From: Phycisphaerales bacterium
GTDB lineage: Bacteria > Planctomycetota > Phycisphaerae > UBA1845
Assembly (NCBI GenBank): GCA_020348265.1
Contig: CP070744.1
Coordinates: 4,993,559 to 5,057,558 of the forward strand
Direction: 5' to 3'
Length of the DNA stretch: 64,000 nt
A model generated the notes under the pieces. It saw only the letters and a program-made list of their open reading frames with translations, made no database searches and was not told the DNA's origin. Position 1 is the first letter of the stretch; each line of letters begins with the position of its first letter. This document shows positions 10,161-64,000 of this stretch, one piece after another. A program made the translations under genes and the position numbers.

Positions 10161-10211
10161 GACTTGGGCTCCGTTAACAGATTATCACCCGATTGCGAGG
10201 AGCAGGCGTTC

Positions 10212-14405: not shown

Positions 14406-14425
14406 ACTTGGGTCGCCGGAACGGG

Positions 14426-20864: not shown

Positions 20865-20912
20865 TACGTAGCCAGAGGCACTTTGGGTTGCTGTCCAGGT
20901 GAGGATAGGTAA

Positions 20913-22043: not shown

Positions 22044-22087
22044 GCCCTTACAGTGCGTCCGGGGTGTGCAAACAAGGAGGCAAGGTG

Positions 22088-22486
22088 ATGTCGCGAGAAA
22101 AGAGGGTGCGGGTACTTGTTGCAAAACCCGGATTAGATGGGCATGACGTAGGGGCTAAGGCCGTCGCCCGCACCTTGATGGATGCCGGCTTCGAAGTTGT
22201 CTATACCGGACTGAAAAAGTCCCCCGAGGAAATAGTTCTGCGGGCACGCGAAGAGAAGGTGGATGTACTTGGCCTGTCTATACTATCCGGCTCACACATT
22301 CCCATCTGCCAACAGATAAAGAACCTGCTGGATAAACACGAGGTGCCTCCTTTGCTATGGATCGTAGGTGGCAACATTCCACTCCAGGATCACGATGAAC
22401 TCAGGCGGATTGGAGTCGATGGCGTCTTCGCAGTTGGATCGTCTCTTCAGGAAATCATCGACTTCATCAACGAGAGAATATCATGA
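22088..22486 (+). CDS. B12-binding subunit of a methylmalonyl-CoA-mutase-family acyl-CoA mutase (small subunit)
   Basis: RVLVAKPGLDGHDVGAKAVARTLMDAGFEVVYTG (the DxHxxG cobalamin-binding motif). The track ORF is over-extended upstream to 21878. Confidence 0.8.
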   Translation: MSREKRVRVLVAKPGLDGHDVGAKAVARTLMDAGFEVVYTGLKKSPEEIVLRAREEKVDVLGLSILSGSHIPICQQIKNLLDKHEVPPLLWIVGGNIPLQDHDELRRIGVDGVFAVGSSLQEIIDFINERIS

Positions 22487-24169: not shown

Positions 24170-24237
24170 GTGTAGCGCCACCCCTTGTGGGTGGCGTCTT
24201 TCGAGGCTTCACGTCGTCCACGAGGGGCGGCGCTACA
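24170..24237. repeat. palindromic repeat element, copy B
   Basis: GTGTAGCGCCACCCCTTGTGGGTGGCG (24170-24196)...GTCCACGAGGGGCGGCGCTACA (~24216-24237). It lies between the mutase stop and the M32 peptidase start, inside the 5' leader of the latter. Confidence 0.55.
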
Positions 24238-24294
24238 TTATTCAACAGGCTGTCAGACCACGACGGCACACTCAACAAGGACAAGGATAAGGGA

Positions 24295-40034: not shown

Positions 40035-40208
40035 CTATTGTCCGCTGCGGTACGATGGCTGTATACTCTGCCCATCGGCGTCGGTTTCGCAACCCCGGCC
40101 GCCAGGGAGATTGGTTCAAGGAGCCTTCCCGCGAGTGTTCTGCGAGAGTGCACGACGGTAGTGTCACTGGTCAGTCACGGACGGATTGGACTCGAGAGCA
40201 GATTAGTG

Positions 40209-48656: not shown

Positions 48657-49391
48657 AGTAACGGCACAACAGAAGAGCTTTATCGGGCAGGCTTGTCAAC
48701 CTATCCGAACGGCTGCTTGTCACTCACGGGAGGCCACTTGTTGTGTGCTATACTCGTCGAAGTCACCCTCTCGGTGAGGGCCCTTCTTGCTCGGTCCGAG
48801 CTTGCAGTCCCAATCGCTGCAGATCCATGATGCGTGGCCGTGCAGGTACAGAGTGTGTGAAGTGCCACTCTTATGTCGCTATACTGACGTTCCTGAGGGA
48901 TCGGGCTTCCGGCCTACAACGACTCAAGATTGCCGAGGCCATGCGTCAATCGCATCCACAAGCAGTCTCGGATCGAAGGGCATAGCGCTTCCCCTCCGAC
49001 TGGCGTGATCGACATTCGCACGATTCAACCGCCGGACAGCCAGCCGCCCGATGTTCGGGAAGAGAGAAGAACGTCCGATAATGCAGCCGCGCCGCTGTCG
49101 GGCTGGTGGGTCTCTGTGATCCCTAAACGCTTCCGTGGCAATCGGGGCGCAGTTGGGGACCCGACGTGGCTAGGTTATTCCGTAAGAATCTGTCAGGCTC
49201 TGGGAGATAATGTTAGGTTTCGTTAGCTCGATTCGGTACAATTCTCGCATTGATGTACCGGTACGCGCGTTTTCTACGGAGAAGGCGCGCGAACGACTGA
49301 GGGGCCACTAAGGCGTCAGCGGATAAGATTAAGACCGGGTTTGCGCCACGTAGGTCTGAGTCTTGTCTATGGAGAATGGGGGTATCGAGAA

Positions 49392-52121: not shown

Positions 52122-52278
52122 AAGGCCAGCCGTTTAGACAACCTCTTCCTGCGCTTGTCAGCGAATAGTATCTCTCGCTTGCCGGTGCATGCTTGAAGCA
52201 CCCACGCCCCCGGGGTAGGATAGCGTCTTGATGCTCTATGAATGGGAACCGTAGGCTCCAAGACAACCCGCCGGAATC

Positions 52279-53067
52279 ATGACCATAGGTCTTTCATCTT
52301 CGATCATTATGATTGCCGTAGTCCTGGCCCCGACCGTCGAGGGGCCTGACGACGCCCCTGAGGCGTACCACAGCACGGCTTACGGCTACCATCTCGAGGT
52401 ACCGCCCGGATGGGTTGAGATCCCCAAAGACGCGATGGAAATGATGTCCGCTTTTCTGCTGAACCAGGATGTTGAGCAGAAGATCATCCATGATGCAGGG
52501 TTCCAGCTTGCCTCCGCCGGGCACTGGCTTGAGTACCCATATGTTCTCGTACAACCGGTTATGTATGCCGACTATGGTCTGCACCGACAGATTAACGAGG
52601 ACGAGTTTCCCAGGCATGTGCAGTTGATGACCGGACTGGATGTCGACGAGCTTACCGAAGACGCCCTCTCCTCCCATGCACGCCAGCTTTTGGTCGACTT
52701 GGATGCCGAACGCCCGGAACTCGACGTTGTCCGTCGCCGATATCTCTGGCATCTGAACATGGATGCTAAGGGGTTTGGGCCAGTTCGTGGTCTTATTGCC
52801 GGTCACTTCGGGCGCGACTCCGTCGTTCAGGTCGCGTTCTACTCTCTTCGTTCTGATTGGGATCGCTACGCCGAGGTGCGGAGTGCGATCATCGACTCGT
52901 TCCGTTTCGATCCGGAAAAAGCGTATAGCATTGCCGTCGCACAGGCCAATCCTACCCCACCCCCCAGGTGGCACAGTGTTCTTAGAGGGGCCCTTATTGG
53001 CGCGATAGTTGGCGCCCTCTGGGGTGTGATTGGGATGATGAAGCGTAAGAGGAAAGTCCGCACCTAG
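52279..53067 (+). CDS. hypothetical secreted/membrane-anchored protein
   Basis: N-terminal hydrophobic signal, acidic body, and a C-terminal TM anchor (LRGALIGAIVGALWGVIGMM) with a basic tail. No family recognised. Confidence 0.5.
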   Translation: MTIGLSSSIIMIAVVLAPTVEGPDDAPEAYHSTAYGYHLEVPPGWVEIPKDAMEMMSAFLLNQDVEQKIIHDAGFQLASAGHWLEYPYVLVQPVMYADYGLHRQINEDEFPRHVQLMTGLDVDELTEDALSSHARQLLVDLDAERPELDVVRRRYLWHLNMDAKGFGPVRGLIAGHFGRDSVVQVAFYSLRSDWDRYAEVRSAIIDSFRFDPEKAYSIAVAQANPTPPPRWHSVLRGALIGAIVGALWGVIGMMKRKRKVRT

Positions 53068-53630
53068 GCACACAATCAAAGAACATGCAATCCGCCTCAC
53101 TTGCACGCACCGAAGCAGTTGACGCCCCATCGTGCATTCGATCGCATTGGGGTGGGTGACGCAGCCCCGCGGCACAGACCCACGTCGTCTGCAGTATCGG
53201 ATCTGTGGTGCCTGATCGCCGGAGGGGAGGGGTGTGAGGGCATCCCGCCCCCACATGGGCCGAAGCCGCCGGCAGTCACCCGGCCACGACTTGTCCGTCG
53301 AGTGTCCAAGGTTGCGGGTCAATCCGACACCACTCCAGGCCGATCGATTCGCGAGCGCGGCGGTGGTACACGGGCGTTTGCCTTTGGCGAGTGTCATACG
53401 TACATTCCTCTGCCCGACCGCGCCGGGTCTCCGACCAGCGATGGTACGCTGTTTGCAGGGCGCTCTTGAGGACGACACACGGGTTGCGGTGCGCGGCGAC
53501 AAGCGGCGGGATCGTACCGGTCGGCCAAATACAAGCGCCGGGTGGAAGGATGCTTCGAAGCAGTTATGCACAGCTACGGACTCGGACCCTGAGTCGAGGT
53601 CTGTAGCGTAAATCTCTTGGAGTTTTATCA

Positions 53631-54812
53631 GTGTCCAAACGGAAGATTGTAGCGATGCCCGGAGACGGGATCGGTAAGGTAGTCCTGCCCAGCGCTATTC
53701 GGGTGCTGGATGCCGTTGGGTTCGAGGCCGAGTATGTCCATGCAGATATCGGCTGGGAGTTCTGGATCAGGGACGGAAACGCCCTTCACCAGCGAACCAT
53801 CGACCTGCTGGCTGAGTACAAGTTGGGCTTGTTCGGAGCAATCACCTCCAAGCCGAAGGATCAGGCCGCCGCCGAGTTGTCGCCTGAGCTAAAGGACAAA
53901 GGCTACGTTTACAGTAGCCCAATCGTGGGATTGCGTCAGCACTTTGATCTGGACATCTGCATTCGACCTTGCCGGTCGTTCAAGGGTAACCCGCTGAACT
54001 TCATCCGCCGCGACGGCGATGGTTTCGCCGAGCCGCCGGTGGATGCGGTCATCTTCCGCCAGAACACCGAGGGACTCTATGCCGGGGTCGAGTGGACTGA
54101 TCCGCCACCCAACGTGCGTACGGCCCTCGAATCTCATGCCAGGATGGCGCGGTTCAAGGATACCCCGGGCAAGGACCTTGCCGTATCTACGCGCATCTTC
54201 ACCCGAAGGGCCTGCCAAAGAGTAACGCGGGAGGCTTTCGCCTACGCGAAGAAGTTCGGGTACCGCTCCGTTACGGTGTGTGAGAAGCCCAATGTGATCC
54301 GCGAGACCTCCGGAATGCTGCGGGCTGAGGCCCAGGCGGTCGCCAAGGAGTATCCAGAGATCGCCCTTTGGGAGACGAACATTGATGCCCAGATGATGTG
54401 GCTGACCAAGAACCCCGAAGACTACGGCGTGCTGGTATGCGGGAACATGTTCGGGGACATCGTCTCGGACGGGTTCGCCGGGCTGGTGGGCGGCCTCGGG
54501 TTTGCGTGCAGCGCCAACATAGGCCCGGAGGTAGCCGTCTTTGAGCCGACACACGGGTCGGCGCCGAAATACGAGACATTCGATCCGTCAATCGTCAACC
54601 CAATAGCAATGATTCTGTCGGCCTGCATGATGCTGGATCACATCGGCGAGAAGGATAAGTCTGATCGAATCCGGGCAGCCGTGGGTGCCGTCGTTGCGGA
54701 GGGAAAGACCCGCACCTACGACATGCTTCGCTTGCCCGGCCGGCAGGAAGTCCTCGAGCAGGGTGCAGCCAACACCACCCAAATGACCGACGCGATCATC
54801 GAGAGACTGTAG
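53631..54812 (+). CDS. isocitrate/isopropylmalate/homoisocitrate dehydrogenase-family beta-decarboxylating dehydrogenase (GTG start)
   Basis: KIVAMPGDGIGKVV N-terminal motif and NMFGDIVSDGFAGLVGGLG (the family's substrate/metal-binding D-x-x-D region). Confidence 0.85.
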   Translation: MSKRKIVAMPGDGIGKVVLPSAIRVLDAVGFEAEYVHADIGWEFWIRDGNALHQRTIDLLAEYKLGLFGAITSKPKDQAAAELSPELKDKGYVYSSPIVGLRQHFDLDICIRPCRSFKGNPLNFIRRDGDGFAEPPVDAVIFRQNTEGLYAGVEWTDPPPNVRTALESHARMARFKDTPGKDLAVSTRIFTRRACQRVTREAFAYAKKFGYRSVTVCEKPNVIRETSGMLRAEAQAVAKEYPEIALWETNIDAQMMWLTKNPEDYGVLVCGNMFGDIVSDGFAGLVGGLGFACSANIGPEVAVFEPTHGSAPKYETFDPSIVNPIAMILSACMMLDHIGEKDKSDRIRAAVGAVVAEGKTRTYDMLRLPGRQEVLEQGAANTTQMTDAIIERL

Positions 54813-54825
54813 CCGGAGTACGCAA

Positions 54826-56802
54826 TTGTCACAGAATCTCGTGGAGAAGATCGCTCAGCGGTACGCCGTAGGGCTTGCCGACGGGCAGACCGTGCGTGCA
54901 GGGGACTTTCTGTCCGTAAGGCCCGCACATGTCATGACGCACGATAACACCGCGGCCGTCATACCTAAGTTCGAAAGCATGGGGGCGTCGCGTGTGGCGG
55001 ATTCAAAGCAGCCCGTCTTCACCCTAGACCACGACATACAAAACGAGAGTGAAGGGAATCTGGCCAAGTACGCCAAGATCAAGACGTTTGCTAAGGAGCA
55101 GGGCGTCGCCTTTTTCCCGGCCGGGCGGGGAATCGGGCATCAGGTGATGGTCGAAGAAGGGTTCGTCCTTCCGGGCACGTTCGTGGTCGCCTCCGACTCG
55201 CATTCTAACCTGTATGGCGGGCTCGGTGCGCTGGGAACACCTGTGGTACGAACCGACGCGGCTGCAATCTGGGCGACGGGACGGACGTGGTGGCAGGTTC
55301 CCCCGGTAGTCCGCGTGCAACTCAGTGGCAAACTCGCCCCCGGCGTTACCGGCAAGGACGTTATCATCGCACTCATCGGTGTGTTCAATAAGGACGAGGT
55401 GCTCAACTGCTGCCTGGAGTTCACGGGTGCCGGCGTAGCTAGCCTGCGAATCGACGAGCGTTTGGCAATTGCCAACATGACCACGGAGTGGGGGGCGCTT
55501 GCGGGCGTGTTTCCATGCGATGAGGTAACAAAGGAATTCCTGCTTTTCCGGGCTGAGATAATGCGTAAGCGGGGCGATACTGCGCCGACACTCACTCCCG
55601 AACTCGTCGTGAGAGCGGTCGAGGATTGTCCGGTCGCCGACGCGGATGCCGTTTACGAGAAGGACCTTGAATTGGACTTATCCGCCGTTACGCCCTTTGT
55701 TGCCGGTCCCAACGAGGTAAAGACAATCACCCCCCTTCCCGAAATCGAAGAGAAGCGGGTCAAAATCCACAAGGCCTATCTGCTGAGTTGCGTCAACGGC
55801 AGGTTGGAGGATTTCGCCAGCGCCGCCGAGGTGCTCAAAGACAAGAAGGTCGCAGACGGGGTTACTCTATACGTGGCCGCTGCATCAAGCGAGGTTCAGT
55901 CCGAGGCCGCCCGCCTGGGCTATTGGGACACGCTTTTGCAGGCAGATGCCACTGCTTTGCCTCCGGGTTGCGGCCCGTGTATCGGTCTTGGAGATGGTGT
56001 GCTCAAAGAGAATGAAGTCGGCATCTCCGCGACCAATCGGAACTTCAAGGGGCGTATGGGGGCACCCAGTTCGCAGGTTTATCTGGCCAATCCGGCGGTC
56101 GTTGCTGCTTCGGCTGTTGCGGGTTACATCACCGCTCCGCCTCGCGGCGCGGATTCGCCAAATGCAGGGACGCTTCGGGAAGCTCTGCAGCGCGGCAGCT
56201 CGGTTCGTACTTCAGCACGTCCCGCGGAGGGGGCGAGGGAAGTCAAGCTGGTCGGCGGCTTCCCAGCCACCATCGAGGGCGAGCTGCTCTTTGTCCCCAA
56301 GGACAACATGAACACCGACGGAATCTACGGGAAGGAGTTCACCTATCAGGATGGGCTCGCACCGCAAGAGATGGGCAGCAAGGCCATGCTCAACTACGAT
56401 CCGCAGTTCCAGCGGTTGGCCCGGGATGGTGACATTCTGGCCGGCGGCTACAACTTCGGATCGGGCTCTTCACGAGAACAGGCTGCGACCGCCCTGAAGT
56501 TCCGCGGTCTGCAGATGGTGATCGCCGGTTCCTACTCGCAGACCTACAAGCGGAACGCGTTCAACAATGGGTACGTCGTTATCGAGTGCCCCGAGCTGAT
56601 TGAGGATCTTAAGGCCGCGCACACCGGCGCCGATGCGCTGAGCATCCGTACCGGGACACGCGTGATTGTTGACTTCACGCACGCGCGAATCACGGCCAAC
56701 GGAAAGGACTATGCTTTCGCTCCTCTGGGCGAAGTGGCCCAGGAGCTGATTACCAAGGGTGGGTTTGAGGCACTGATCCGTGAGCAGATTGCACAGTTGT
56801 AG
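54826..56802 (+). CDS. aconitase-family hydro-lyase, fused large (LeuC-like) and small (LeuD-like swivel) domains
   Basis: 658 aa. VVASDSHSNLYGGLGA (Fe-S ligand region). C-terminal GDILAGGYNFGSGSSREQAATALKFRGLQMVIAGSYSQTYKRNAFNNG is LeuD/aconitase swivel-like. Confidence 0.8.
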   Translation: MSQNLVEKIAQRYAVGLADGQTVRAGDFLSVRPAHVMTHDNTAAVIPKFESMGASRVADSKQPVFTLDHDIQNESEGNLAKYAKIKTFAKEQGVAFFPAGRGIGHQVMVEEGFVLPGTFVVASDSHSNLYGGLGALGTPVVRTDAAAIWATGRTWWQVPPVVRVQLSGKLAPGVTGKDVIIALIGVFNKDEVLNCCLEFTGAGVASLRIDERLAIANMTTEWGALAGVFPCDEVTKEFLLFRAEIMRKRGDTAPTLTPELVVRAVEDCPVADADAVYEKDLELDLSAVTPFVAGPNEVKTITPLPEIEEKRVKIHKAYLLSCVNGRLEDFASAAEVLKDKKVADGVTLYVAAASSEVQSEAARLGYWDTLLQADATALPPGCGPCIGLGDGVLKENEVGISATNRNFKGRMGAPSSQVYLANPAVVAASAVAGYITAPPRGADSPNAGTLREALQRGSSVRTSARPAEGAREVKLVGGFPATIEGELLFVPKDNMNTDGIYGKEFTYQDGLAPQEMGSKAMLNYDPQFQRLARDGDILAGGYNFGSGSSREQAATALKFRGLQMVIAGSYSQTYKRNAFNNGYVVIECPELIEDLKAAHTGADALSIRTGTRVIVDFTHARITANGKDYAFAPLGEVAQELITKGGFEALIREQIAQL

Positions 56803-56820
56803 GTAGAAGGAATATCAGGA

Positions 56821-57366
56821 ATGCGTAACGAGATTATCGAATTGTTTCCCGAACTCAAGGAACTCTCCGATGCGGCGCTCCGCGAGAAGGTCATAGACGT
56901 TTGGGAGGACTCTATCAGAACGGGCGGCTGGCAGCCCAAGGAACTACTTGAGATACCGTTTACGCTGCTTGCCGGCGAGATCGAGATGAAGTTCATCGAG
57001 CACGTTCGCTCATGCGCCCGCATGTGCCTTGTTGTTGAGAAGGTGCTGCGCGAAATCTGGGGTAATCGGATGCCCATCCATCACGACCACTTGCTCGCCG
57101 GGGCGTTGCTCGCCGATGTGGGCAAGCCCATCGAGTACGCCAAGCAAGACGGCAAGATCGTAAAGGGGCAGCGGGGTGATCACCTGCGACACCCGTTTAG
57201 TGGAGTAGGAATGTGCTGGAAGCACGGCTTACCCGATGAGGTGATGCATATCGTCGCCACCCACTCGAAGGAGGGGGACCATGTGCAGCGAACTACTGAG
57301 TCAATAATCTTCCACCACGCGGATTTCATCAACTTCGATATCGCGTGTGGACTGGGTAAGAAATAG
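56821..57366 (+). CDS. HD-domain metal-dependent phosphohydrolase
   Basis: HDHLLAGALLADVGK (HD motif); 181 aa. Confidence 0.7.
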   Translation: MRNEIIELFPELKELSDAALREKVIDVWEDSIRTGGWQPKELLEIPFTLLAGEIEMKFIEHVRSCARMCLVVEKVLREIWGNRMPIHHDHLLAGALLADVGKPIEYAKQDGKIVKGQRGDHLRHPFSGVGMCWKHGLPDEVMHIVATHSKEGDHVQRTTESIIFHHADFINFDIACGLGKK

Positions 57367-57375
57367 GGGGACGAC

Positions 57376-58749
57376 ATGGGTACCTTGACCGAACGACTTT
57401 CCCGTTGGGCGTGTGATCTGCAGTACGAAGACCTTAGCGCAGACGCCATCGATGCAGCCAAGCGCTTTCTCTTCGATTCTATCGGATGCGCTCTAGGGGG
57501 CTACCAGACTGAAGACGTGCGGACCTTTCTTGGCTACTACCGAGACCTTGGGCAGCCGGGGGATTGCACGGTCATCGGAGCCGGCGACCAAATGAATGTC
57601 GTTGCAGCTGCAATGCTCAACGCTCTTATGATCCGGGCGATGGATTATAATGACATCTATTGGAAGCAAGATCCAGCCCATCCCAGCGACTTGCTTTCCG
57701 CTCCTTTGGCGCTTGCTCAGCGTGATCACAAGAGTGGTAAAGACCTTATCCTCGCAACGGTCCTGGCCTATGAGGTCGCCATGCGACTTTGCCACATAGC
57801 TGAGCCGGGGATCCGCGAGCGCGGTTGGCATCACGCAACGCTTATGGGTTATGCCTCGCCCATCGTTGCCAGCCGCATCCTGGGGCTTGATTGGCAGCAG
57901 ATGCAGCATGCCATCGGGATCGCCAGCTGTCATTGCTTCACGCTTGGTTGCGCGGTTGCGGGCAAGCTCACCATGATGAAGAACACGGTGAGTCCTATGG
58001 CTACGCGGGACGGTGTCGAAGCTGCCCTGCTCGCTCAGAAGGGTTACACGGGGCCAGAAGGAGTAATCGACGGCAAGGAAGGCATGGAGCACTGCTTGGG
58101 GGATTCCTGGGACTACTCCTGGATCACCGACACGCTGGGCAAGCGCTTCATGATTACGGACTGCGGAATGAAGTCCTTCCCCGTGGAGGCGTTGATGCAT
58201 TCGCCACTCTCCGCCACTCTGCATCTGCTCCACGAGCACAGCCTCAAAGCAGAGGACATCAAGGAGGTTTTGGTCGAGAGCATTGCTCGGGCGGCGGACA
58301 TTCTCAGCGATCCTGCCAAGTATGACCCGCAGAGTAAGGAGTCTGCAGACCACAGCCTGCCCTACAGTATCGCTGCAGCAGTGGCTGAAGGTCGTGTCAC
58401 CCCCCGCGAATTCACCGAGAAGAAACTTTGGGATGAGCGTCTACGTGCACAGATGGCCAAAGTCAAGGTCGTGGCCAATGAGGAGTTTGAGCGAGCTTTT
58501 CCGGTCAAGCAGTGCACACGCGTGACCATCACCACGGTGGATGGACAGAAGTTCTCCCACGCGGTCGACGTGCCCAAGGGCGATCCGCGCGACCCCATGA
58601 CCGAGGTGGAGCTTACTGTCAAGTTCGACTCCCTGGCTGAACCGGTGATGAGTGAATCACGTCGAAAGGACCTCAAAGACACGATTCTCTCCCTGGAGCA
58701 GCTGGACGATGTGGGGAAGTTGATGGCGCATACCATTGCGGACAAGTAA
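57376..58749 (+). CDS. MmgE/PrpD-family protein (2-methylcitrate dehydratase-like)
   Basis: 457 aa, MmgE/PrpD fold signatures (FLFDSIGCALGG, GWHHATLMGYASPIVAS). Confidence 0.85.
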   Translation: MGTLTERLSRWACDLQYEDLSADAIDAAKRFLFDSIGCALGGYQTEDVRTFLGYYRDLGQPGDCTVIGAGDQMNVVAAAMLNALMIRAMDYNDIYWKQDPAHPSDLLSAPLALAQRDHKSGKDLILATVLAYEVAMRLCHIAEPGIRERGWHHATLMGYASPIVASRILGLDWQQMQHAIGIASCHCFTLGCAVAGKLTMMKNTVSPMATRDGVEAALLAQKGYTGPEGVIDGKEGMEHCLGDSWDYSWITDTLGKRFMITDCGMKSFPVEALMHSPLSATLHLLHEHSLKAEDIKEVLVESIARAADILSDPAKYDPQSKESADHSLPYSIAAAVAEGRVTPREFTEKKLWDERLRAQMAKVKVVANEEFERAFPVKQCTRVTITTVDGQKFSHAVDVPKGDPRDPMTEVELTVKFDSLAEPVMSESRRKDLKDTILSLEQLDDVGKLMAHTIADK

Positions 58750-58812
58750 GGCTATCACCCGTAGGGAGAGGTTCTGAGGAGTAAGAACCACAAACCAAGG
58801 TATCCGAAGAAT

Positions 58813-60024
58813 ATGACGACTACAACAACCAGCCAAATCGCCGAAGCAAGTCGGCGCGGTGAGGACGTCCGCTCCGACTGCTGGGTCGAGATTACTCTTG
58901 CCGACTCCGGGGGGATCGACCTTGCGCTTACAACAAAGGTCGAGTCTATGTACGGGGAATCGACCAGGCAGCTCGTCCGCGACGAGCTGGCCGCGCTGGG
59001 TGTAACCCACGCCAGGGTGGAGATCGAGGACGCCGGCGCTTTGCCGTTTGTCATTACCGCCCGGGTCGAGGCAGCTGTACGCCGGCTCGGATTCGACGTT
59101 GGTGATGGATACCTGGTGGAGTGTGGTCCGGGTACGGATTACGCAACGCAGCGGGATCGCTTCCGTCGGTCTCGTTTATACTTGCCGGGCAACGAACCCA
59201 AGTTTGCGATCAACGCGGGAGTTCATCAGCCGGATGGAATCATCCTGGATCTGGAGGATAGCGTAGCTCCGCCCCAGAAGGACGAGGCCAGGCTGATCGT
59301 GCGTAATGCTCTTCGCACCATTGACTTCAAAGGTGCGGAGCGCATGGTGCGGATCAACCAGGGTGATCGAGGCTTGGAGGACTTGGACTTCATCGTGCCA
59401 CACAACGTGCACCTGCTGTTGATCCCCAAAGTGGAAAGCGCGGAGCAGGTCAGGGTGGTCGATGCACGCACGCGGGAGATTCTCCACGAACGCCGGATAA
59501 ACACTCGCGTATACTTAATGCCGATTGTGGAGAGCGCCCTCGGAGCCCTTCGTGCGTTTGAAATTGCATCAGCCACCGACAGAGTAGTAGCGCTTACCAT
59601 CGGTCTGGAAGACTACACAGCCGATATCGGAACGGCACGTACGAAGGAAGCGTGGGAGAGTTTCTGGGCTCGGTCGCAAGTGGTTAACGCCGCCCGCGCC
59701 GCCGGGGTGCAACCGATCGACAGCGTTTTCTCCGACGTTGCAGACACCGAAGGCCTGCGCCGAAATGTCCTGGAATCGAAAAGCCTCGGATTCGACGGCA
59801 TGGGCTGCATCCACCCCAGACAGATCGCCGTCATCCACGAAGCCTTTGCTCCTGCGGATGAGGAACTAGCCAAGGCGAGGCGAATCGTGGAAGCCTTTGA
59901 AGAAGCGCAGCGAAGGGGCTTGGGCGTTGTATCGCTCGGTAGCAAGATGATCGACCCTCCGGTGGTCAAGCGTGCCCAGCGAGTCGTGCGGCTGGCTGAG
60001 GCGATGGGGATGCCGCGGAGCTAG
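58813..60024 (+). CDS. fused citrate-lyase acyl-carrier (CitD-like, N-terminal ~95 aa) and citrate-lyase beta / citryl-CoA-lyase (CitE, HpcH/HpaI aldolase fold)
   Basis: N-terminus ITLADSGGIDLALTTKVESMYGE...ARVEIEDAGALPFVITARVEAAVRR (CitD pattern). Remainder SRLYLPGNEPKFAINAGVHQPDGIILDLEDSVAP (CitE). Confidence 0.8.
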   Translation: MTTTTTSQIAEASRRGEDVRSDCWVEITLADSGGIDLALTTKVESMYGESTRQLVRDELAALGVTHARVEIEDAGALPFVITARVEAAVRRLGFDVGDGYLVECGPGTDYATQRDRFRRSRLYLPGNEPKFAINAGVHQPDGIILDLEDSVAPPQKDEARLIVRNALRTIDFKGAERMVRINQGDRGLEDLDFIVPHNVHLLLIPKVESAEQVRVVDARTREILHERRINTRVYLMPIVESALGALRAFEIASATDRVVALTIGLEDYTADIGTARTKEAWESFWARSQVVNAARAAGVQPIDSVFSDVADTEGLRRNVLESKSLGFDGMGCIHPRQIAVIHEAFAPADEELAKARRIVEAFEEAQRRGLGVVSLGSKMIDPPVVKRAQRVVRLAEAMGMPRS

Positions 60025-60047
60025 AGTTTTTCCAGGATTATCCAGAG

Positions 60048-61628
60048 ATGTCGACGAAAGTACTCGATATGGGAATCGAACTGTTGGAGAACGCGGCCGG
60101 GCGACTCGTACCGGCCGAGGTCAACGGTAAACCCGCAACGCCTTTCCAAGGCGTCAGGAAGTACAAGCCTACCGGCAACAAGACCGCACCGCCGGTGCGC
60201 TCCTGCGCAGACTATCCAGCCGATGGCAATAAGGTCGTTACCGGTTTGAAGACAGCACTTGTTAACGCCGGCCTGCGCGACGGCATGACCATCTCGACGC
60301 ACCACCACTTCCGCAATGGGGACATGGTTGGCAACGCGATCTTCGATGCCGCTGCGGCGATGGGAGTGAAGGACTTGATGTGGTTTCCAAGCGCATCGTT
60401 TCCTTGTAATGCCCCGATTGTGGACCATCTTGACAACGGCGTGGTGCACCACATTGAGGGAAGCATGAATGGGTCGCTGGGCGACTATTGCTCGCGCGGC
60501 AAGATGCGAGGGATGGGCGTGTTGCGTTCGCACGGCGGCCGATGGCAGGCGGTGCAGGACGGAGAAGTGCACATCGACGTCGCAGTGATCGCGGCACCAA
60601 CGGCTGATCCATTTGGGAACGCGAACGGTGTAACCGGTCCGAGCGCCTGCGGGCTGCTGGGCTTCGCCCTGGTAGATTCGATCTATGCCGATCACGTGAT
60701 AGTGGTTACGGACAACCTGGTCGATTTCCCCTGCCTGCCCTGGCAGATTCAGGGCAACAACGTGGATCAGGTTGTGGCGATGGATTCCATCGGTGATCCG
60801 TCGAAGATCGTCTCGGGTACCACGCAGTTGACCAAGAGTCCGGATCGTCTGCTCATTGCGGAGATGGCAGCGAAGTTCGTCCGTGACGCGGGGATCATGC
60901 GTGACGGCTTCTCTTTTCAGGCAGGCGCGGGTGGTACCGCTCTGGGATTTGCCATCTTTCTGCGGGAGATGATGAAGAAAGCCGGGGTCAAGGCCCGGTT
61001 CATTCGCGGGGGCAGCACCAAGTATCTGGTGGAGATGTTGGAGGAAGGCTTGACCGACTACATTCTCGACGGGCAGACATTCGATTTGGACGGCGTCCGC
61101 TCGATGCGCGACAACCCCGGCCATCAGGACACCAGCCCGTTCACCAGCTACAACTTCCACGGCAAAGGGTGTTTTGCATCGATGCTCGACGCTACAGTCC
61201 TGGGCGCAACAGAGGTAGATGTAGATTTCAATGCCAACGTAGTGACACATTCGGACGGGAGACTCCTGCACGGCATCGGCGGGTGGCAGAACTGCCTCGC
61301 GGGCAAGTGCGTCATTCTCCCGATTCCGTCGGTCCGCGACCGCATCCCTGTTATCGTGGATCGCGTGACCACCCTCTGCGGACCGGGTGAACTCGTCGAT
61401 GTAGTCGTGACCGAACGTGGAATCGCCATAAACCCGTGGCGGACGGATCTCCTGGAGGCGGCAAAGGGTTCGGATCTTCCCATCCGTCCTATCCAGGACA
61501 TCAAGGCCGAGGTGGAAGCCCTCTGCGGCGGACCACCCGCGGCGCCGAAGCTGGGTGAGAAGATCGTCGCAGCCGTCAAATGGGTCGACGGCACGGTAAT
61601 CGACTGCGTGCGCCAAACTGGAGGATGA
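60048..61628 (+). CDS. citF: citrate lyase alpha subunit (citrate CoA-transferase, CitF)
   Basis: 526 aa CitF-like (TISTHHHFRNGDMV, GGWQNCLAG). Confidence 0.85.
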   Translation: MSTKVLDMGIELLENAAGRLVPAEVNGKPATPFQGVRKYKPTGNKTAPPVRSCADYPADGNKVVTGLKTALVNAGLRDGMTISTHHHFRNGDMVGNAIFDAAAAMGVKDLMWFPSASFPCNAPIVDHLDNGVVHHIEGSMNGSLGDYCSRGKMRGMGVLRSHGGRWQAVQDGEVHIDVAVIAAPTADPFGNANGVTGPSACGLLGFALVDSIYADHVIVVTDNLVDFPCLPWQIQGNNVDQVVAMDSIGDPSKIVSGTTQLTKSPDRLLIAEMAAKFVRDAGIMRDGFSFQAGAGGTALGFAIFLREMMKKAGVKARFIRGGSTKYLVEMLEEGLTDYILDGQTFDLDGVRSMRDNPGHQDTSPFTSYNFHGKGCFASMLDATVLGATEVDVDFNANVVTHSDGRLLHGIGGWQNCLAGKCVILPIPSVRDRIPVIVDRVTTLCGPGELVDVVVTERGIAINPWRTDLLEAAKGSDLPIRPIQDIKAEVEALCGGPPAAPKLGEKIVAAVKWVDGTVIDCVRQTGG

Positions 61629-61782
61629 CGCCACGGTATTGACAAACAGAGCCTTTGGCACGAGAACTGCTCCCGTTAATGTGCCGTCGGCGATACATCC
61701 GGCGCGAACTGAAGCGGATCCGCCTGCGGGTATTCGAGCCTTTCGGTTGAGAGTACTTGCAGGGCGCAGAGGGAGTGATCGA

Positions 61783-62394
61783 ATGCAAGGGTACCCAAAG
61801 GTTGTGAAACTAAAGGACGGCCGGAACGTCACACTGCGCCTGCTTGCCAACGGAGATTTTGAGAAGCTCTACGCGTTCTTCCAGGATCTAGAGGAGGCGG
61901 ACAGGCTTTTCCTAAGAGACAACGTTGCTGATCCCGCTTTGATTCGAAAGTGGACCGAAAACATCGATTGCGAGCGCGTCGTTCCCATCGTGGCAGAGGA
62001 CGGCGAGACAATCGTGGCAGACGCCACACTGCATAACAGGCCCCATGGCTGGGCGCAGCACGTTGGGCTGATTCGCCTGGTGGTCGCCGGATCGCACCGC
62101 GATGTCGGCCTTGGCACGCTGTTGGCTAGGGAGCTCGTAGGGCTGGCGGAGGAACGTGGACTCGAGAAGCTGCAGGCCAACGTCATCGAAGATGATCAGG
62201 CCATGCTGAAGACGTTCGAAGCCATGGGCTTTGGAAAGGAGGCGGTTGTGCGCGAGGCGGTCAAGGACCAGCACGGCAACAAGCACAACCTTGCCATTTT
62301 GATTAACGACGTCGCCGATCTGGGTCGATCACTGGAGGACTGGATCTCCGATACGATGATTCCGTCCTTTCGAGTTCCCGGAGCAGGGGCATAG
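61783..62394 (+). CDS. GNAT-family N-acetyltransferase
   Basis: LVVAGSHRDVGLGTLLARELVGLAEERGLEKLQANV (acetyl-CoA-binding motif A-like). The track ORF start at 61639 is over-extended. Confidence 0.6.
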   Translation: MQGYPKVVKLKDGRNVTLRLLANGDFEKLYAFFQDLEEADRLFLRDNVADPALIRKWTENIDCERVVPIVAEDGETIVADATLHNRPHGWAQHVGLIRLVVAGSHRDVGLGTLLARELVGLAEERGLEKLQANVIEDDQAMLKTFEAMGFGKEAVVREAVKDQHGNKHNLAILINDVADLGRSLEDWISDTMIPSFRVPGAGA

Positions 62395-62596
62395 TGTAAC
62401 CGATTGGGAGGATTCAGCGACCCTGTGCTGCTAATCCGAGATGTGCTCATTCGCGTGCTGTTAGGATCGAAGGACCTGTGGAGTTACGCCCCGCCATCTG
62501 TAGATACGAAAGGCTCCGCCAAAGACGCAAGTGACAGATAGTGCCGTCAACCGGTTACAGATTCGGATAAGTTTGCCAGAATTGAGAGTTCCAGCC

Positions 62597-62893
62597 ATGA
62601 ACGAAGGCTCCGAAGAGTCCACCGACCCTGGTGAACAGGCGGCCAAACCTCGAAAGAGAACCCAAGGCGTTGTGTCCATTGACACGGAGCGCTGTAAGGG
62701 CTGCTGCTACTGTGTCGAGTTCTGCCCGATGCACGTGTTGATCATGTCCTCCAAGTTCAACGCCAAGGGCCACCATTACCCTGAAGTCGATCCGGACGGG
62801 AAGTGCACGGCTTGTGACCTCTGTGGAATGTTCTGCCCGGATTTTGCGATTCACGCACAGCGCGTTTCCAAGCCGGATTCGACGAAGGAGTGA
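62597..62893 (+). CDS. 2x[4Fe-4S] ferredoxin, delta subunit of a 2-oxoacid:ferredoxin oxidoreductase (KorD/PorD-like)
   Basis: CKGCCYCVEFCP and CTACDLCGMFCP; ~98 aa, directly upstream of korA. Confidence 0.75.
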   Translation: MNEGSEESTDPGEQAAKPRKRTQGVVSIDTERCKGCCYCVEFCPMHVLIMSSKFNAKGHHYPEVDPDGKCTACDLCGMFCPDFAIHAQRVSKPDSTKE

Positions 62894-62899
62894 AGTCGA

Positions 62900-64000
62900 G
62901 TGTCTATTACTAACGGCAGACCTCTCACCGGCGCCTTCTACTTGGATGGCGACCAAGCTGTAGCCGAAGGAGCAATCGCCGCGGGCTGCAACTTCGTGGC
63001 CGGTTATCCGATTACACCGTCGACGGAGATCGTCGAGCGGCTGGCGGCCAGGTTCCCGAGCACCGGTGGGACTTTTATCCAGATGGAGGATGAGATTGCT
63101 TCATCCATTGCCATTCAAGGCGCCGTCTGGGGCGGGGCGAAAGCCATGACGGTGAGTTCGGGTCCGGGCATCTCCTTGATGATGGAGCACATCGGATTTG
63201 CAGCTATGACCGAGGTGCCTTGTGTGTTCGTCAATGTCCAGCGGGGCGGACCGTCGACCGGACTCCCAACCTTGCCCGCTCAGGCTGATATGATGCAGGC
63301 CCGCTGGGGATCGCATGGCGACTACGAGATCATCGCCCTTTCACCCACCAGTCCGCAGGATTGCTTTGACCTGATCATCCACGCCTTCAATCTCTCCGAG
63401 AAGTACCGCGTGCCTGTGATGTTCATGATGGACGAGAGTGTGGGGCATCTTACCGAAAAGGTAGTGATCCCACCCCGCGACCAGATCGAAGTGACTCCCC
63501 GCCGGTACACCAAGTTGCCCCCGGGGGAGTACGAACCCTATAGAACGGGCGAAGATCTAGTTCCAGAGTTCGCCAGGGCTGGGCGAGGGTATCGTTTCCA
63601 CATCACCGGCCTGACTCACAATGAAAAGGGCTATCCGGTCATGGATGCCGGTTGCCAGGAGGCGTTGGTCAATCGCCTCGTAGACAAGATCAGGAATAAC
63701 GTCGACGAGATCTCCCTGTACAGCGAGGACGGCGTTGAGGATGCCGACATCGTGGTTATCACCTACGGTATAAGCTCCCGCGTGAGCAGGCCGGCAATTC
63801 GCCAGGCCCGTGCAAAGGGAGTAAAGGTGGGACACTTGCGCTTGACGGTGGTGTGGCCTTTCCCCGAGCAACACATCCGTGAACTCGCCGGCAGAGTAAA
63901 AGCCCTCGTCGTTCCCGAGCTAAACCTCGGGCAGATAGTCCTCGAGGTCGAGCGCTGTTCCGCCGGCAAGTGTAACGTGCGCTCCGTTCCTCACGCTGGG
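62900..64000 (+). CDS. 2-oxoacid (2-oxoglutarate/pyruvate):ferredoxin oxidoreductase alpha subunit, 5' part (runs off the window end; absent from the supplied ORF track)
   Basis: GTG start at 62900. Manual translation: VSITNGRPLTGAFYLDGDQAVAEGAIAAGCNFVAGYPITPSTEI...GPGISLMMEHIGFAAMTEVPCVFVNVQRGGPSTGLPT. Open to nt 64000 with no stop. Confidence 0.8.
   Translation, partial: MSITNGRPLTGAFYLDGDQAVAEGAIAAGCNFVAGYPITPSTEIVERLAARFPSTGGTFIQMEDEIASSIAIQGAVWGGAKAMTVSSGPGISLMMEHIGFAAMTEVPCVFVNVQRGGPSTGLPTLPAQADMMQARWGSHGDYEIIALSPTSPQDCFDLIIHAFNLSEKYRVPVMFMMDESVGHLTEKVVIPPRDQIEVTPRRYTKLPPGEYEPYRTGEDLVPEFARAGRGYRFHITGLTHNEKGYPVMDAGCQEALVNRLVDKIRNNVDEISLYSEDGVEDADIVVITYGISSRVSRPAIRQARAKGVKVGHLRLTVVWPFPEQHIRELAGRVKALVVPELNLGQIVLEVERCSAGKCNVRSVPHAG

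Follow-up and report, generated by a model that had tools for sequence, protein, structure and literature searches.

A widespread bacterial operon of citrate-lyase-like, homoaconitase-type and dehydrogenase genes in a Phycisphaerales genome, with a putative role in homocitrate chemistry

Gene content of the locus

We examined a 64,000-nt stretch of DNA (the window) from a Phycisphaerales MAG, which carries a gene cluster toward its 3′ end (Table 1). The gene list of the initial annotation, with every gene on the plus strand, was recovered in full. The first seven genes (53631-62394) are separated by 9-63 nt; a wider gap, of at least 136 nt, then separates the GNAT gene from the ferredoxin gene, and the dehydrogenase gene is preceded by a non-coding stretch of about 560 nt (53068-53630). 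Profile searches of the cluster region (Pfam and NCBIfam) turned up neither PrpB nor a synthase for citrate, methylcitrate or homocitrate, as the initial annotation had also noted.

Table 1. Genes of the cluster and its downstream neighbours, in window coordinates.
Feature	Position	Strand	Basis
Iso_dh family dehydrogenase, 393 aa	53631-54812	+	Pfam Iso_dh
Fused Aconitase + Aconitase_C hydro-lyase, 658 aa	54826-56802	+	Pfam
HD protein, 181 aa	56821-57366	+	Pfam HD
MmgE/PrpD-family protein, 457 aa	57376-58749	+	Pfam MmgE_PrpD_N and _C
Citrate-lyase ACP (PF06857)-HpcH/CitE fusion, 403 aa	58813-60024	+	Pfam
CitF, 526 aa	60048-61628	+	Pfam CitF
GNAT, 251 aa as longest ORF; start uncertain	61639-62394	+	Pfam Acetyltransf_1
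KorD-like 2x[4Fe-4S] ferredoxin	62531-62893	+	Fer4 families
POR_N/PFOR_II alpha subunit, runs off window	62900-64000	+	Pfam

Conservation of the cluster across bacterial lineages

The operon in the window is one copy of a widespread, uncharacterised bacterial operon. Its six core genes (IDH-family dehydrogenase, HD protein, fused homoaconitase-type hydratase, PrpD-like protein, CitD-CitE fusion and CitF) are found together on the same strand in at least 10 phylum-level lineages: Planctomycetota, Ignavibacteriota (including a Melioribacter roseus MAG), Bacteroidota, Acidobacteriota, Gemmatimonadota, WOR-3, Eisenbacteria, Chloroflexota, Armatimonadota, and Cloacimonadota. At least 588 species genomes encode a homologue of the CitD-CitE fusion. 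We surveyed 84 non-redundant loci around such homologues by tblastn: 52 contained at least one further core gene, and 205 of the 212 core-gene matches were co-oriented with CitDE; many loci have CitDE-CitF without the other core genes. In the 41 loci whose flanks were long enough, CitF was present in 35, an isomerase in 25, two dehydratases in 19, and the dehydrogenase together with the HD gene in 17. The gene adjacency is non-random. A chance juxtaposition of unrelated genes in this one genome, for which only the mixed family names speak, is already refuted by the same-strand recurrence, and we give it practically no credence; the initial annotation had named normally dispersed genes as an outcome that would speak against its view of a real, non-textbook operon; the genes are not dispersed in this way, and that view is borne out. 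In three Ignavibacteria loci, a gene of the CstA (pyruvate/peptide transporter) family also lies within the operon.

The HD protein is a conserved member of the cluster, with a metal-dependent (phospho)hydrolase fold. It is a divergent HD-superfamily member (Pfam HD, 24 bits; with a match to the HDIG model TIGR00277), and its gene is found in 28 related loci, beside dehydrogenase or isomerase genes. Residues H61, D89, D99, K102, E105, R123-H124-P125, H148, E151, H165, and D168 are invariant, and the His of the HD dyad is not kept among the cluster proteins. The structural neighbours of its AlphaFold model (pLDDT 86.5) are generic HD-fold proteins: YhaM (TM 0.66), followed by PF0395, PgpH, and YfbR.

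The initial annotation had also counted the GNAT and Kor genes as part of the island, and here the census disagrees. The GNAT domain occupies residues 64-211 of the 251-aa ORF; no homologue was found in any related locus, and a different GNAT family (154-169 aa) is encoded upstream of CitDE in four of them (L001, L005, L008, and L023), so the window GNAT is a lineage-specific accessory gene. The ferredoxin scores 63.5 bits against OGOR_delta (cut-off 125), and the alpha subunit, of which the N-terminal 367 aa lie within the window, matches POR_N (236 bits) and PFOR_II (72 bits). Since no Kor homologue stands beside the cluster in any of the 41 related loci with enough flank, Kor lies outside the conserved unit; such a neighbour could consume or supply 2-oxoglutarate.

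In one lineage group only (Cloacimonadota-type), the module is tied to saccharopine genes, which are absent from the window. In these loci (L037, L041, and L087-L090), module orthologues and two saccharopine-pathway genes form one tight, same-strand operon, and the dehydrogenase orthologues are 69-72% identical to the window enzyme and share its substrate loop. The first of the two genes gives a full-length match to the lysine-ketoglutarate-reductase (LKR) domain of human AASS (277 bits, vs 68 for yeast Lys1), and the second matches yeast Lys9/saccharopine reductase (317 bits); we regard them as a genuine lysine-ketoglutarate reductase and a genuine saccharopine dehydrogenase. In a reciprocal look-up, the module was present in all four of the places examined. 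No aminoadipate semialdehyde dehydrogenase/reductase or aminoadipate aminotransferase was found near any cluster, nor any aminoadipate reductase (a large NRPS-like protein) in the saccharopine-linked operons.

Enzyme families and predicted substrates

The dehydrogenase matches Pfam Iso_dh with 250 bits and reaches no NCBIfam equivalog cut-off; its top matches are the homoisocitrate dehydrogenases AksF2/AksF, and the best IDH equivalog score is 229 against a cut-off of 510. Its substrate loop, YSSPIVGLRQ, follows the invariant pattern Y-x-SPIV-G-LRQ, with SPIV unchanged in 28 orthologues; the orthologues are 66-82% identical across phyla. This loop agrees with that of the homoisocitrate dehydrogenase (HICDH) of S. 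pombe (3TY3; GYSSPIVALRK), and is unlike both the Thermus HICDH loop (GAIRYLR) and the S-x-N-V loop of IDH, in which the equivalent of Ile in the window enzyme is Asn115; Ile and Val make the pocket hydrophobic, as in IPMDH. The enzyme is thus a candidate homoisocitrate dehydrogenase (homoisocitrate ↔ 2-oxoadipate + CO2), an assignment that rests on one loop, since whole-protein similarity slightly favours NAD-IDH (6LKY, 186 bits) and Thermus HICDH (180 bits) over S. pombe HICDH (152 bits).

With 741 bits against a cut-off of 530, the fused hydratase passes the “homoaconitase” equivalog model TIGR00139, and its closest solved relative is the homoaconitase large subunit of M. jannaschii. Its small-domain loop, TDGIYGKEFTYQD, is of the GK(Y/F)TY(Q/T) type, which also occurs in the split or 592-aa enzymes that other lineages have in its place. 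These features suggest a homoaconitase-type enzyme, converting cis-homoaconitate ↔ homoisocitrate.

PrpD orthology of the MmgE/PrpD-family protein was considered and rejected: it scores 94, 83, and 73 bits against the PrpD equivalogs, far under their cut-offs of 575, 950, and 458. Among solved structures, IDS epimerase and cis-aconitate decarboxylase come closest to it. A 600-634-aa fused aconitase-family protein takes its place in related loci, and only one locus has both; each complete cluster combines an enzyme bearing the GK(Y/F)TY(Q/T) loop with either of these two. The pattern fits the earlier proposal that the PrpD and LeuCD-like enzymes divide dehydration and hydration between them, and the PrpD-like protein may be a homocitrate dehydratase (homocitrate ↔ cis-homoaconitate). 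The homoaconitases of fungi and Thermus act only between homoaconitate and homoisocitrate; homocitrate is handled by a second enzyme of the aconitase family (PMC3556520). The pairing of a homoaconitase-type enzyme with a second dehydratase in the cluster parallels this two-enzyme isomerisation in fungi.

Some other hydroxy acid could be the substrate, such as 2-methylcitrate, citramalate/3-methylmalate or a longer alkylmalate (for example, in a citramalate-lyase-based route from pyruvate + acetate to 2-oxobutyrate, or the reverse). The PrpD-family protein, the IPMDH-like hydrophobic pocket and the CstA genes would suit this, as would the CitDEF-like architecture, which is that of clostridial citramalate lyase. 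We consider it improbable, given the low PrpD equivalog scores, the lack of PrpB and PrpC, the homoaconitase equivalog passed by the hydratase, the presence of the Ile-Val loop in a solved homoisocitrate dehydrogenase as well, and the tie to saccharopine enzymes.

The CitD-CitE fusion consists of a CitD part (residues ~10-95; ACP PF06857, 67 bits) and a CitE-type acyl-ACP lyase part (residues ~116-403; HpcH_HpaI, 185 bits), and falls under the citrate-lyase equivalogs (citE 281 bits vs 443; citD 57.9 vs 63.5). Ser21, in the motif RSDCWV where the citD profile alignment begins, is invariant. CitF follows CitDE in 67 of the 84 loci, with 61-86% identity; it scores 454 bits against Pfam CitF and 497.6 bits against the citrate-lyase alpha equivalog TIGR01584 (cut-off 501.45), only 4 bits short, so true citrate specificity is possible. 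No citC, citG or citX (prosthetic-group synthesis and acetylation of citrate lyase) was found near any cluster, and the 121 ORFs examined around 36 module loci included no HMGL-type synthase. Since the cluster has no homocitrate synthase, we read the CitDEF-like complex as a putative homocitrate lyase, an activity of which the literature searched holds no report: the fusion would be the homocitryl-ACP lyase, and the CitF-type alpha subunit the ACP-transferase that moves the ACP thioester between acetate and homocitrate.

Alternatively, a true ATP-independent citrate lyase could work with a two-part aconitase and IDH (citrate ↔ 2-oxoglutarate) as a branched or reductive TCA segment. The CitF score and the downstream Kor-type enzyme accord with this, so highly conserved a dehydrogenase would be at home in a central pathway, and a malic enzyme gene immediately upstream of CitDE in two loci (L034 and L061) would suit oxaloacetate/malate chemistry and counts against homocitrate. 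It also agrees with the 2012 genome paper on Ignavibacterium album, in which IALB_1146 and IALB_1147 were annotated as citrate lyase and a role in the reverse TCA cycle was raised (PMC3362086). It is nevertheless unlikely: the dehydrogenase carries Ile where IDH has Asn115 and reaches no IDH equivalog, the hydratase passes the homoaconitase and not the aconitase model, two dehydratases are conserved though citrate needs one aconitase, Kor is adjacent in none of the 41 related loci, and the saccharopine link has no TCA role. The initial annotation's reading of citrate lyase linked to Kor in a reductive TCA variant is accordingly not favoured, on the grounds of the Kor census and the missing Asn115 equivalent.

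Proposed pathway and direction of flux

We favour homocitrate over citrate or methylcitrate on the basis of the homoaconitase equivalog, the loop of the fungal HICDH type, and the saccharopine-linked operons. From these sequence relationships we infer the substrates of all the enzymes, above all homocitrate for the lyase, as well as the role of the PrpD-like protein and the direction of flux; our leading reading, held with somewhat more confidence than doubt, is that the operon turns 2-oxoadipate from lysine breakdown into 2-oxoglutarate and acetate via homocitrate. The dehydrogenase would catalyse 2-oxoadipate + CO2 + NAD(P)H ↔ homoisocitrate; the fused hydratase, homoisocitrate ↔ cis-homoaconitate; the PrpD-like protein (or the second fused aconitase-family protein in other lineages), cis-homoaconitate ↔ homocitrate; CitF, homocitrate + acetyl-S-ACP ↔ homocitryl-S-ACP + acetate; and the CitE domain, acting on its fused ACP, homocitryl-S-ACP ↔ acetyl-S-ACP + 2-oxoglutarate. 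The net reaction, 2-oxoadipate + CO2 + NAD(P)H ↔ 2-oxoglutarate + acetate, would be ATP-independent and near equilibrium. Counting against this reading are the confinement of the saccharopine link to one group of lineages, the many loci that have only CitDE-CitF, and the failure to find citC, citG, citX or enzymes for the two connecting steps (aminoadipate semialdehyde dehydrogenase/reductase and aminoadipate aminotransferase) near any cluster. The catabolic direction is modestly favoured, in which the operon would form the lower half of an anaerobic, redox-neutral degradation of lysine/2-aminoadipate; in the window genome, the 2-oxoglutarate formed could feed the adjacent ferredoxin oxidoreductase. 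The initial annotation had suggested cleavage of a substituted citrate: its homocitrate-like form is what we retain, and its methylcitrate form is not supported by the PrpD scores or the absence of PrpB and PrpC. Its decarboxylating role for the dehydrogenase is inconsistent with cleavage, which requires reductive carboxylation; we know of no precedent for physiological reductive carboxylation of 2-oxoadipate.

The same evidence for homocitrate chemistry (equivalog, loop, and saccharopine operons) applies if the flux is biosynthetic, with the CitDEF-like complex serving as a homocitrate synthase that depends on acetate and needs neither ATP nor CoA. The 2-oxoadipate made by the operon would then go into lysine, through an alpha-aminoadipate pathway of the fungal (saccharopine) type, or into another product. 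The dehydrogenase family usually runs as an oxidative decarboxylation, and we estimate from textbook equilibrium constants that the lyase equilibrium would allow homocitrate to reach micromolar levels when 2-oxoglutarate is millimolar and acetate is in the tens of millimolar. I. album, which has a CitE-CitD fusion and CitF, was reported without lysC, asd, and dapABD (PMC3362086). We see biosynthetic flux as a minority possibility, since the lysine-side enzyme is far nearer to the catabolic animal LKR than to the biosynthetic yeast Lys1, and the operons have no aminoadipate reductase. It also needs a citrate-lyase-type enzyme acting as a physiological synthase, of which we know of no case, and Planctomycetes, which make meso-diaminopimelate, would not need a biosynthetic route to 2-oxoadipate.

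On the preferred reading, the operon would represent the chemistry of the alpha-aminoadipate pathway with a lyase where a synthase is expected. The initial annotation had asked whether the proteins fall into canonical Leu/Lys clades: two of them do resemble the homoaconitase and homoisocitrate dehydrogenase of the Lys pathway, but a lyase replaces the synthase and the saccharopine enzymes are of the catabolic type, so the arrangement is non-canonical.

A conserved six-gene cluster

All of the genes named for this region in the initial annotation are present, each on the plus strand (see the table below). The first seven are spaced by 9-63 nt, and at least 136 nt lie ahead of the ferredoxin gene. 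The operon is preceded by ~560 nt of non-coding DNA and, further upstream, by a plus-strand ORF of 262 aa with hydrophobic N- and C-termini, membrane-anchored and without any Pfam match; the ORF and the non-coding stretch together make up positions 52279-53630. A minus-strand ORF of 425 aa (52294-53571) was rejected as a gene, since it looks like a shadow of this 262-aa ORF. Scans of positions 52000-64000 returned 0 promoter-like sites, and terminator-like matches at or below shuffle expectation. Rfam searches of the 560-nt leader and six related loci found no riboswitch, the lysine riboswitch included.

Genes of the operon and its downstream neighbors in the window, from the ORF list and family scans
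Feature	Position	Strand
Iso_dh-family dehydrogenase	53631-54812	+
Fused Aconitase + Aconitase_C protein, 658 aa	54826-56802	+
Small HD protein	56821-57366	+
MmgE/PrpD-family protein	57376-58749	+
Citrate-lyase ACP fused to CitE-type lyase (CitDE)	58813-60024	+
CitF	60048-61628	+
GNAT	61639-62394	+
KorD-like ferredoxin	62531-62893	+
POR_N/PFOR_II alpha subunit, N-terminal 367 residues	62900-64000	+

Homologs of the CitD-CitE fusion are found in at least 588 genomes from many phyla, at 56-76% identity (in a scan of one genome per species). We carried out a synteny census by anchoring the window proteins with tblastn on 84 non-redundant loci. It showed a recurring set made up of the dehydrogenase, the HD protein, an aconitase-family hydratase, either a PrpD-like protein or another fused protein of the aconitase family, CitDE, and CitF, with 205 of the 212 core-gene matches encoded on the strand of CitDE. 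The carriers belong to Planctomycetota, Ignavibacteriota, Bacteroidota, Acidobacteriota, Gemmatimonadota, WOR-3, Eisenbacteria, Chloroflexota, Armatimonadota, and Cloacimonadota, and the dehydrogenases share 66-82% identity across these phyla. The carriers include cultured organisms: Ignavibacterium album, and Melioribacter roseus, of which one assembly (locus L077 of the census) has the full cluster. Among 41 well-flanked loci (at least 7 kb upstream and at least 3 kb downstream), CitF was found in 35, an isomerase in 25, two dehydratases in 19, and the dehydrogenase and the HD gene in 17 each.

Given this recurrence and co-orientation, the first six genes of the table are a conserved unit, and the Kor and GNAT genes are local additions; neighborhood conservation, which the initial annotation had proposed as a check, thus holds for these six genes, as a same-strand unit across phyla. 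No KorA or KorD homolog occurs at any of the 41 well-flanked related loci, so we rejected Kor as a part of the operon (the KorD-like protein scores 63.5 against a cut-off of 125 with the delta-subunit model). None of the related loci has a homolog of the window's GNAT; upstream of CitDE in a few Phycisphaerae lies a small GNAT of another family. Clustering of flank ORFs and a Pfam census (121 ORFs from 36 module loci) revealed only one further recurrent family, Aconitase_C, which in split hydratases is the small subunit. The HD protein is as conserved as the enzymes of the cluster, with the histidine of the HD dyad not conserved; its confident model (pLDDT 86.5) matches only generic HD phosphohydrolases by structure, and a sequence search of solved structures gave no match.

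The operon is repeatedly broken by small selfish-looking ORFs at Ignavibacteria/Bacteroidota loci (L040, L044, L053, L054, L063, and L064) and in Phycisphaerae. Those in Ignavibacteria encode 23S-rRNA-intervening-sequence proteins, a YoeB toxin, and PD-(D/E)XK nucleases; in Phycisphaerae, L006 and L007 have IS200/Y1-transposase-like ORFs between CitDE and CitF (with another upstream of the hydratase in L007), and L001 has a nucleotidyltransferase pair in the operon. Three Ignavibacteria loci contain a gene for CstA, a carbon-starvation protein of a pyruvate/peptide transporter family, between the dehydrogenase and HD genes (L040, 3893-5545; L044, 2677-4329; L064, 2810-4441). In the Phycisphaerae locus L005, a D-isomer-specific 2-hydroxyacid dehydrogenase gene (8283-9212) lies between the hydratase genes and GNAT-CitDE, and the Iso_dh gene is absent nearby. 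A Cloacimonadota-type operon, L090, has two tandem CitF paralogs of 520 and 508 aa after CitDE (12709-15837). In one Phycisphaerae genome, CitDE and the HD gene are both solitary and ~100 kb apart on the same 1.19-Mb contig (L004 and L086), with the other cluster genes absent from their vicinity; co-occurrence therefore outlasts the loss of clustering.

Two dehydratases and a probable homoisocitrate dehydrogenase

Fungal and Thermus homoaconitases carry out only the interconversion of homoaconitate and homoisocitrate, and the conversion of homocitrate to homoaconitate falls to a second enzyme of the aconitase family (Fazius et al., PMC3556520). The 658-aa fused hydratase of the window passes the homoaconitase equivalog TIGR00139 (741 bits against a cut-off of 530), and its best solved relative is the large subunit of an archaeal homoaconitase. 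Every complete cluster encodes two kinds of enzyme. The first has a GK(Y/F)TY(Q/T) small-domain loop and takes the form of the 658-aa protein in the window, a 592-aa fusion at Cloacimonadota-type loci, or, in Gemmatimonadota among others, a LeuC/LeuD-like pair of separate proteins. The second is either PrpD-like or a fused aconitase-family protein of 600-634 aa with a differing loop, NR(Y/H)L(T/A)(I/V)TD; these two types are mutually exclusive in all loci but one. Two conserved dehydratases are what one would expect for homocitrate, since homoaconitase covers one half-reaction, and citrate isomerization needs one aconitase only.

The PrpD-like protein of the window scores 94, 83, and 73 bits with PrpD equivalogs whose cut-offs are 575, 950, and 458, so it is not a PrpD ortholog, and family scans found neither PrpB nor PrpC in the window cluster; we therefore set aside the methylcitrate cycle (PrpC, PrpD, AcnB, PrpB). 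The module resembles that cycle in dividing the work between a PrpD-family dehydratase, which acts on the tertiary alcohol, and an aconitase-family hydratase, which takes over the second half-reaction; in the module, however, isomerization is followed by a dehydrogenase instead of a lyase. We likewise set aside a role of the PrpD-like protein in itaconate formation, as a cis-aconitate decarboxylase: in other lineages an aconitase-family hydro-lyase, rather than a different decarboxylase, replaces it in the cluster. Biosynthesis of leucine or isoleucine was set aside too, as I. album lacks those pathways yet has the cluster.

The dehydrogenase of the window reaches no equivalog cut-off: its best NCBIfam matches are the homoisocitrate dehydrogenases AksF2 and AksF (262 and 257 bits, against 540 and 500), and the best isocitrate dehydrogenase (IDH) equivalog gives 229 bits against 510. 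We compared the stretch before the conserved LRx motif with that of relatives (see the table below).

Substrate loops of the dehydrogenase and its relatives, from residue-level alignment
Enzyme	Loop
E. coli IDH	R-S113-L-N115-V-A-L-R
NAD-IDH	S-x-N-V
Thermus homoisocitrate dehydrogenase (HICDH)	G-A-I-R85-Y-L-R
Window dehydrogenase	Y-S-S-P-I-V-G-L-R
S. pombe HICDH (3TY3)	G-Y-S-S-P-I-V-A-L-R

The loop of the window enzyme matches that of the fungal HICDH, although overall similarity is highest elsewhere (NAD-IDH 186 and Thermus HICDH 180 bits, against 152 bits for S. pombe HICDH). The alignment with 3TY3 was obtained with a yeast Lys12 fragment as the query, and the 3TY3 residues themselves are search output. 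SPIV is invariant in 28 orthologs of the window dehydrogenase; in terms of the IDH motif Ser113-x-Asn115, the serine is kept and the isocitrate-binding asparagine is replaced by an invariant isoleucine. This replacement, together with the missing Kor adjacency at related loci, speaks against a Kor-linked branch of the TCA cycle, one of two readings offered by the initial annotation.

Similar enzymes act in the 2-oxoacid elongation of methanogens (AksA, AksD/E = HacAB, AksF). Besides the AksF matches, the split or fused HacAB-like enzymes of some module lineages belong to the same subfamily. However, in methanogens a single HacAB does both half-reactions and the synthase AksA starts the sequence, whereas the module has two dehydratases and a lyase.

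The citrate-lyase-like complex and a probable link to lysine

No HMGL-type synthase is encoded in the window cluster or among the 121 flank ORFs of the 36 module loci, which leaves the CitDEF-like complex as sole candidate for making or breaking the carbon-carbon bond. CitF of the window scores 454 bits with the Pfam CitF model (cut-off 27) and 497.6 with the equivalog TIGR01584 (cut-off 501.45); the ACP part passes PF06857 (67 bits against 25) and falls below TIGR01608 (57.9 against 63.5); and the CitE part falls below TIGR01588 (281 bits against 443), passing only the superfamily model HpcH_HpaI. In citrate lyase, a serine of the gamma ACP carries 2'-(5''-phosphoribosyl)-3'-dephospho-CoA. 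Ser21 (in RSDCWV), where the alignment to the citD profile begins, is invariant in 12 CitD-CitE fusions and is the putative bearer of this prosthetic group. We found none of citC, citG, and citX in the window cluster, recurrently near the 84 loci, or among the 121 flank ORFs; the HD and GNAT proteins may stand in for them, or these genes may be elsewhere in the genome. That the HD protein matures the ACP prosthetic group is pure speculation.

The ACP (gamma), CitE (beta), and CitF (alpha) families are those of citrate lyase (CitDEF, EC 4.1.3.6; Klebsiella, Leuconostoc, E. coli) and of clostridial citramalate lyase, and the conserved serine is at the expected position. The catalytic cycle is therefore very probably that of citrate lyase, with acyl exchange on an acetyl-thioester carrier and then an aldol-type cleavage. 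In contrast to citrate lyase, gamma and beta form one fused polypeptide whose CitE and CitD parts stay under their equivalog cut-offs, genes for a citrate carrier and oxaloacetate decarboxylase are, like citC, citG, and citX, absent from the vicinity, and the constant partners are homoaconitase- and HICDH-type enzymes. These partners argue for homocitrate (giving 2-oxoglutarate) over citrate (giving oxaloacetate) as the substrate of the lyase.

One alternative is a genuine citrate lyase or TCA segment, as the I. album genes have been read: excerpts of the 2012 genome paper note a CitE-CitD fusion and CitF as an ATP-independent citrate lyase that possibly closes the reverse TCA cycle, and leave the surrounding genes undiscussed (PMC3362086). 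A fusion of MaeB-type malic enzyme and phosphotransacetylase is encoded directly upstream of CitDE at two loci (L034, 7632-9884; L061, 7620-9869), which fits oxaloacetate/malate chemistry better than homocitrate; neither this gene nor CstA inside the Ignavibacteria operons is derivable from the model that we propose. Considering the two dehydratases and the dehydrogenase loop, we regard the citrate reading as improbable. Supplementary material to the genome papers on Melioribacter and Ignavibacterium lists no locus tags for aconitase or IDH. In the open-access literature we found no description of this operon, of a homocitrate lyase (nor any paper using that term), of a reversed aminoadipate pathway, or of a link between PrpD and homocitrate.

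Genes of the saccharopine pathway point to homocitrate as well. Two Cloacimonadota loci encode a Sacchrp_dh_NADP/Sacchrp_dh_C protein and an AlaDh_PNT-type protein directly upstream of CitDE; homologs of the latter are labeled by their sources as lysine-ketoglutarate reductase (LKR)/saccharopine dehydrogenase or aminoadipic semialdehyde synthase. As a reciprocal test, we inspected four diverged AlaDh_PNT-type homologs on long contigs, and all four lie in a tight same-strand operon with the order (saccharopine dehydrogenase)-LKR-CitDE-CitF-dehydrogenase-HD-aconitase-family-aconitase-family; the saccharopine dehydrogenase gene is directly upstream in three of them, the exception being L088. The dehydrogenases of the LKR-bearing operons show 69-72% identity to that of the window and share its loop. 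The LKR-like protein is a full-length match to the LKR domain of human AASS (277 bits, against 68 for yeast Lys1 and 27 for alanine dehydrogenase), and the saccharopine-dehydrogenase-like protein matches yeast Lys9 (317 bits), the Magnaporthe saccharopine reductase (307 bits), and the SDH domain of AASS (278 bits). Lysine-side genes adjoin the module in L037, L041, and L087-L090, and are absent from the window and from the Phycisphaerae loci. Judging by these matches and gene order, orthologs of the module are predicted to be co-transcribed with genuine saccharopine-pathway enzymes, which join the module only through 2-aminoadipate and 2-oxoadipate. Of the pathway for a substituted citrate that the initial annotation had suggested as its other reading, the homocitrate form is thus supported (by the TIGR00139 match, the HICDH-type loop, and the saccharopine-gene operons), and the methylcitrate form is not (PrpD scores, no PrpB or PrpC).

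Another of the closest known systems is the fungal alpha-aminoadipate pathway (Lys20/21, Aco2 + Lys4, Lys12, Lys9, Lys1): the homoaconitase-type hydratase passes the same equivalog, the substrate loop of the dehydrogenase is as in S. pombe HICDH, a second dehydratase is needed, and in some module lineages a Lys9-type saccharopine dehydrogenase is in the same operon. The module differs in that a lyase complex takes the place of homocitrate synthase, a PrpD-like protein or a LeuCD/HacAB-like fusion, instead of a mitochondrial-type aconitase, would serve as the second dehydratase, the lysine-side enzyme is animal-LKR-like and not Lys1-like, and aminoadipate reductase is absent; its hosts are bacteria, many from anoxic habitats, and its direction is probably reversed. 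With the saccharopine catabolism of animals, plants, and bacteria (AASS LKR/SDH, ALDH7A1, AADAT, 2-oxoadipate dehydrogenase), it shares the LKR-/SDH-type genes of the Cloacimonadota-type operons and 2-oxoadipate as a common intermediate. There 2-oxoadipate is oxidatively decarboxylated to glutaryl-CoA, whereas the module would carboxylate it reductively and then split the product into 2-oxoglutarate and acetate.

Proposed pathway, direction, and significance

In the proposed pathway, 2-oxoadipate, CO2, and NAD(P)H would be interconverted with homoisocitrate, homoisocitrate with cis-homoaconitate, and cis-homoaconitate with homocitrate; CitF would then replace the thioester-bound acetyl group of the fused ACP by homocitryl, and the CitE domain would cleave homocitryl-ACP into acetyl-ACP and 2-oxoglutarate. 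In the window, the adjacent Kor-type enzyme could carry 2-oxoglutarate onward, a circumstantial link. By analogy with citrate lyase and IDH, and going by textbook equilibrium constants, the overall reaction should be near equilibrium, and thermodynamics therefore gives no direction. We lean modestly toward catabolism, because lyases of the citrate-lyase family are, to our knowledge, known only to cleave, the enzyme on the lysine side belongs to the catabolic LKR type, none of the operons contains aminoadipate reductase, and the conversion of lysine to two glutamate and acetate would be redox-neutral, with the carboxylation of 2-oxoadipate using up the NAD(P)H from the lysine side. The main rival is the same homocitrate chemistry with biosynthetic flux, for which it speaks that I. 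album, which has the lyase genes, is reported to lack lysC, asd, and dapABD (PMC3362086); given the arguments for cleavage we consider it unlikely, if somewhat less so than the citrate reading.

On balance, then, we consider it slightly more likely than not that homocitrate, homoisocitrate, and 2-oxoadipate are the compounds on which the module acts, through a lyase of the CitDEF type and with catabolism as the favored direction. A bolder version, which we offer tentatively and would not be surprised to see fail, is a widespread and undescribed anaerobic reversal of the alpha-aminoadipate route, from lysine through saccharopine, 2-aminoadipate, 2-oxoadipate, homoisocitrate, and homocitrate (by a two-enzyme isomerization with a PrpD-family or LeuCD-type homocitrate dehydratase) to 2-oxoglutarate and acetate via a new ACP-dependent homocitrate lyase, redox-neutral and ATP-independent. 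All proteins of the module are from known families; what would be new is the putative lyase substrate, the PrpD-/LeuCD-like homocitrate dehydratase, and the logic of the pathway.

If the proposal is true, a gene set annotated as citrate lyase, aconitase, and isocitrate dehydrogenase in hundreds of genomes, and often taken as evidence for TCA or reverse-TCA capacity, would be a homocitrate/2-oxoadipate module tied to lysine metabolism, and metabolic reconstructions of Phycisphaerae, Ignavibacteria, Cloacimonadota, Acidobacteriota, and others would change. Homocitrate lyase would be a new enzyme activity, and the pathway would offer 2-oxoadipate an ATP-independent way around glutaryl-CoA. Candidates would also be named for the homocitrate dehydratase step, which in fungi and Thermus is covered by the housekeeping aconitase and for which we know of no dedicated bacterial enzyme. 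The cultured carriers, I. album and M. roseus, make the idea directly testable.

The window contains a second metabolic gene group (8961-24093), which looks like an organic-acid or amino-acid fermentation cluster. It encodes a family III CoA-transferase, a xanthine-dehydrogenase-type molybdoenzyme and its FAD subunit (minus strand), an indolepyruvate/2-oxoacid:ferredoxin-oxidoreductase-like pair, hydantoinase/oxoprolinase A and B, an acyl-CoA dehydrogenase, and a methylmalonyl-CoA-mutase-type protein; the gene for the last is 30 kb upstream of the operon, and its link to the module is circumstantial. An ORF of 2134 aa (2301-8705, minus strand) encodes an S8 subtilase with MAM domains, and there are peptidases of families M1 (49341-52121) and M32 (24187-25791); these proteins are consistent with a proteolytic lifestyle. 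Other genes of the window encode a cyclophilin-FKBP fusion protein (564-1643) and an N-terminally extended radical SAM protein of the YgiQ type (40038-42215).
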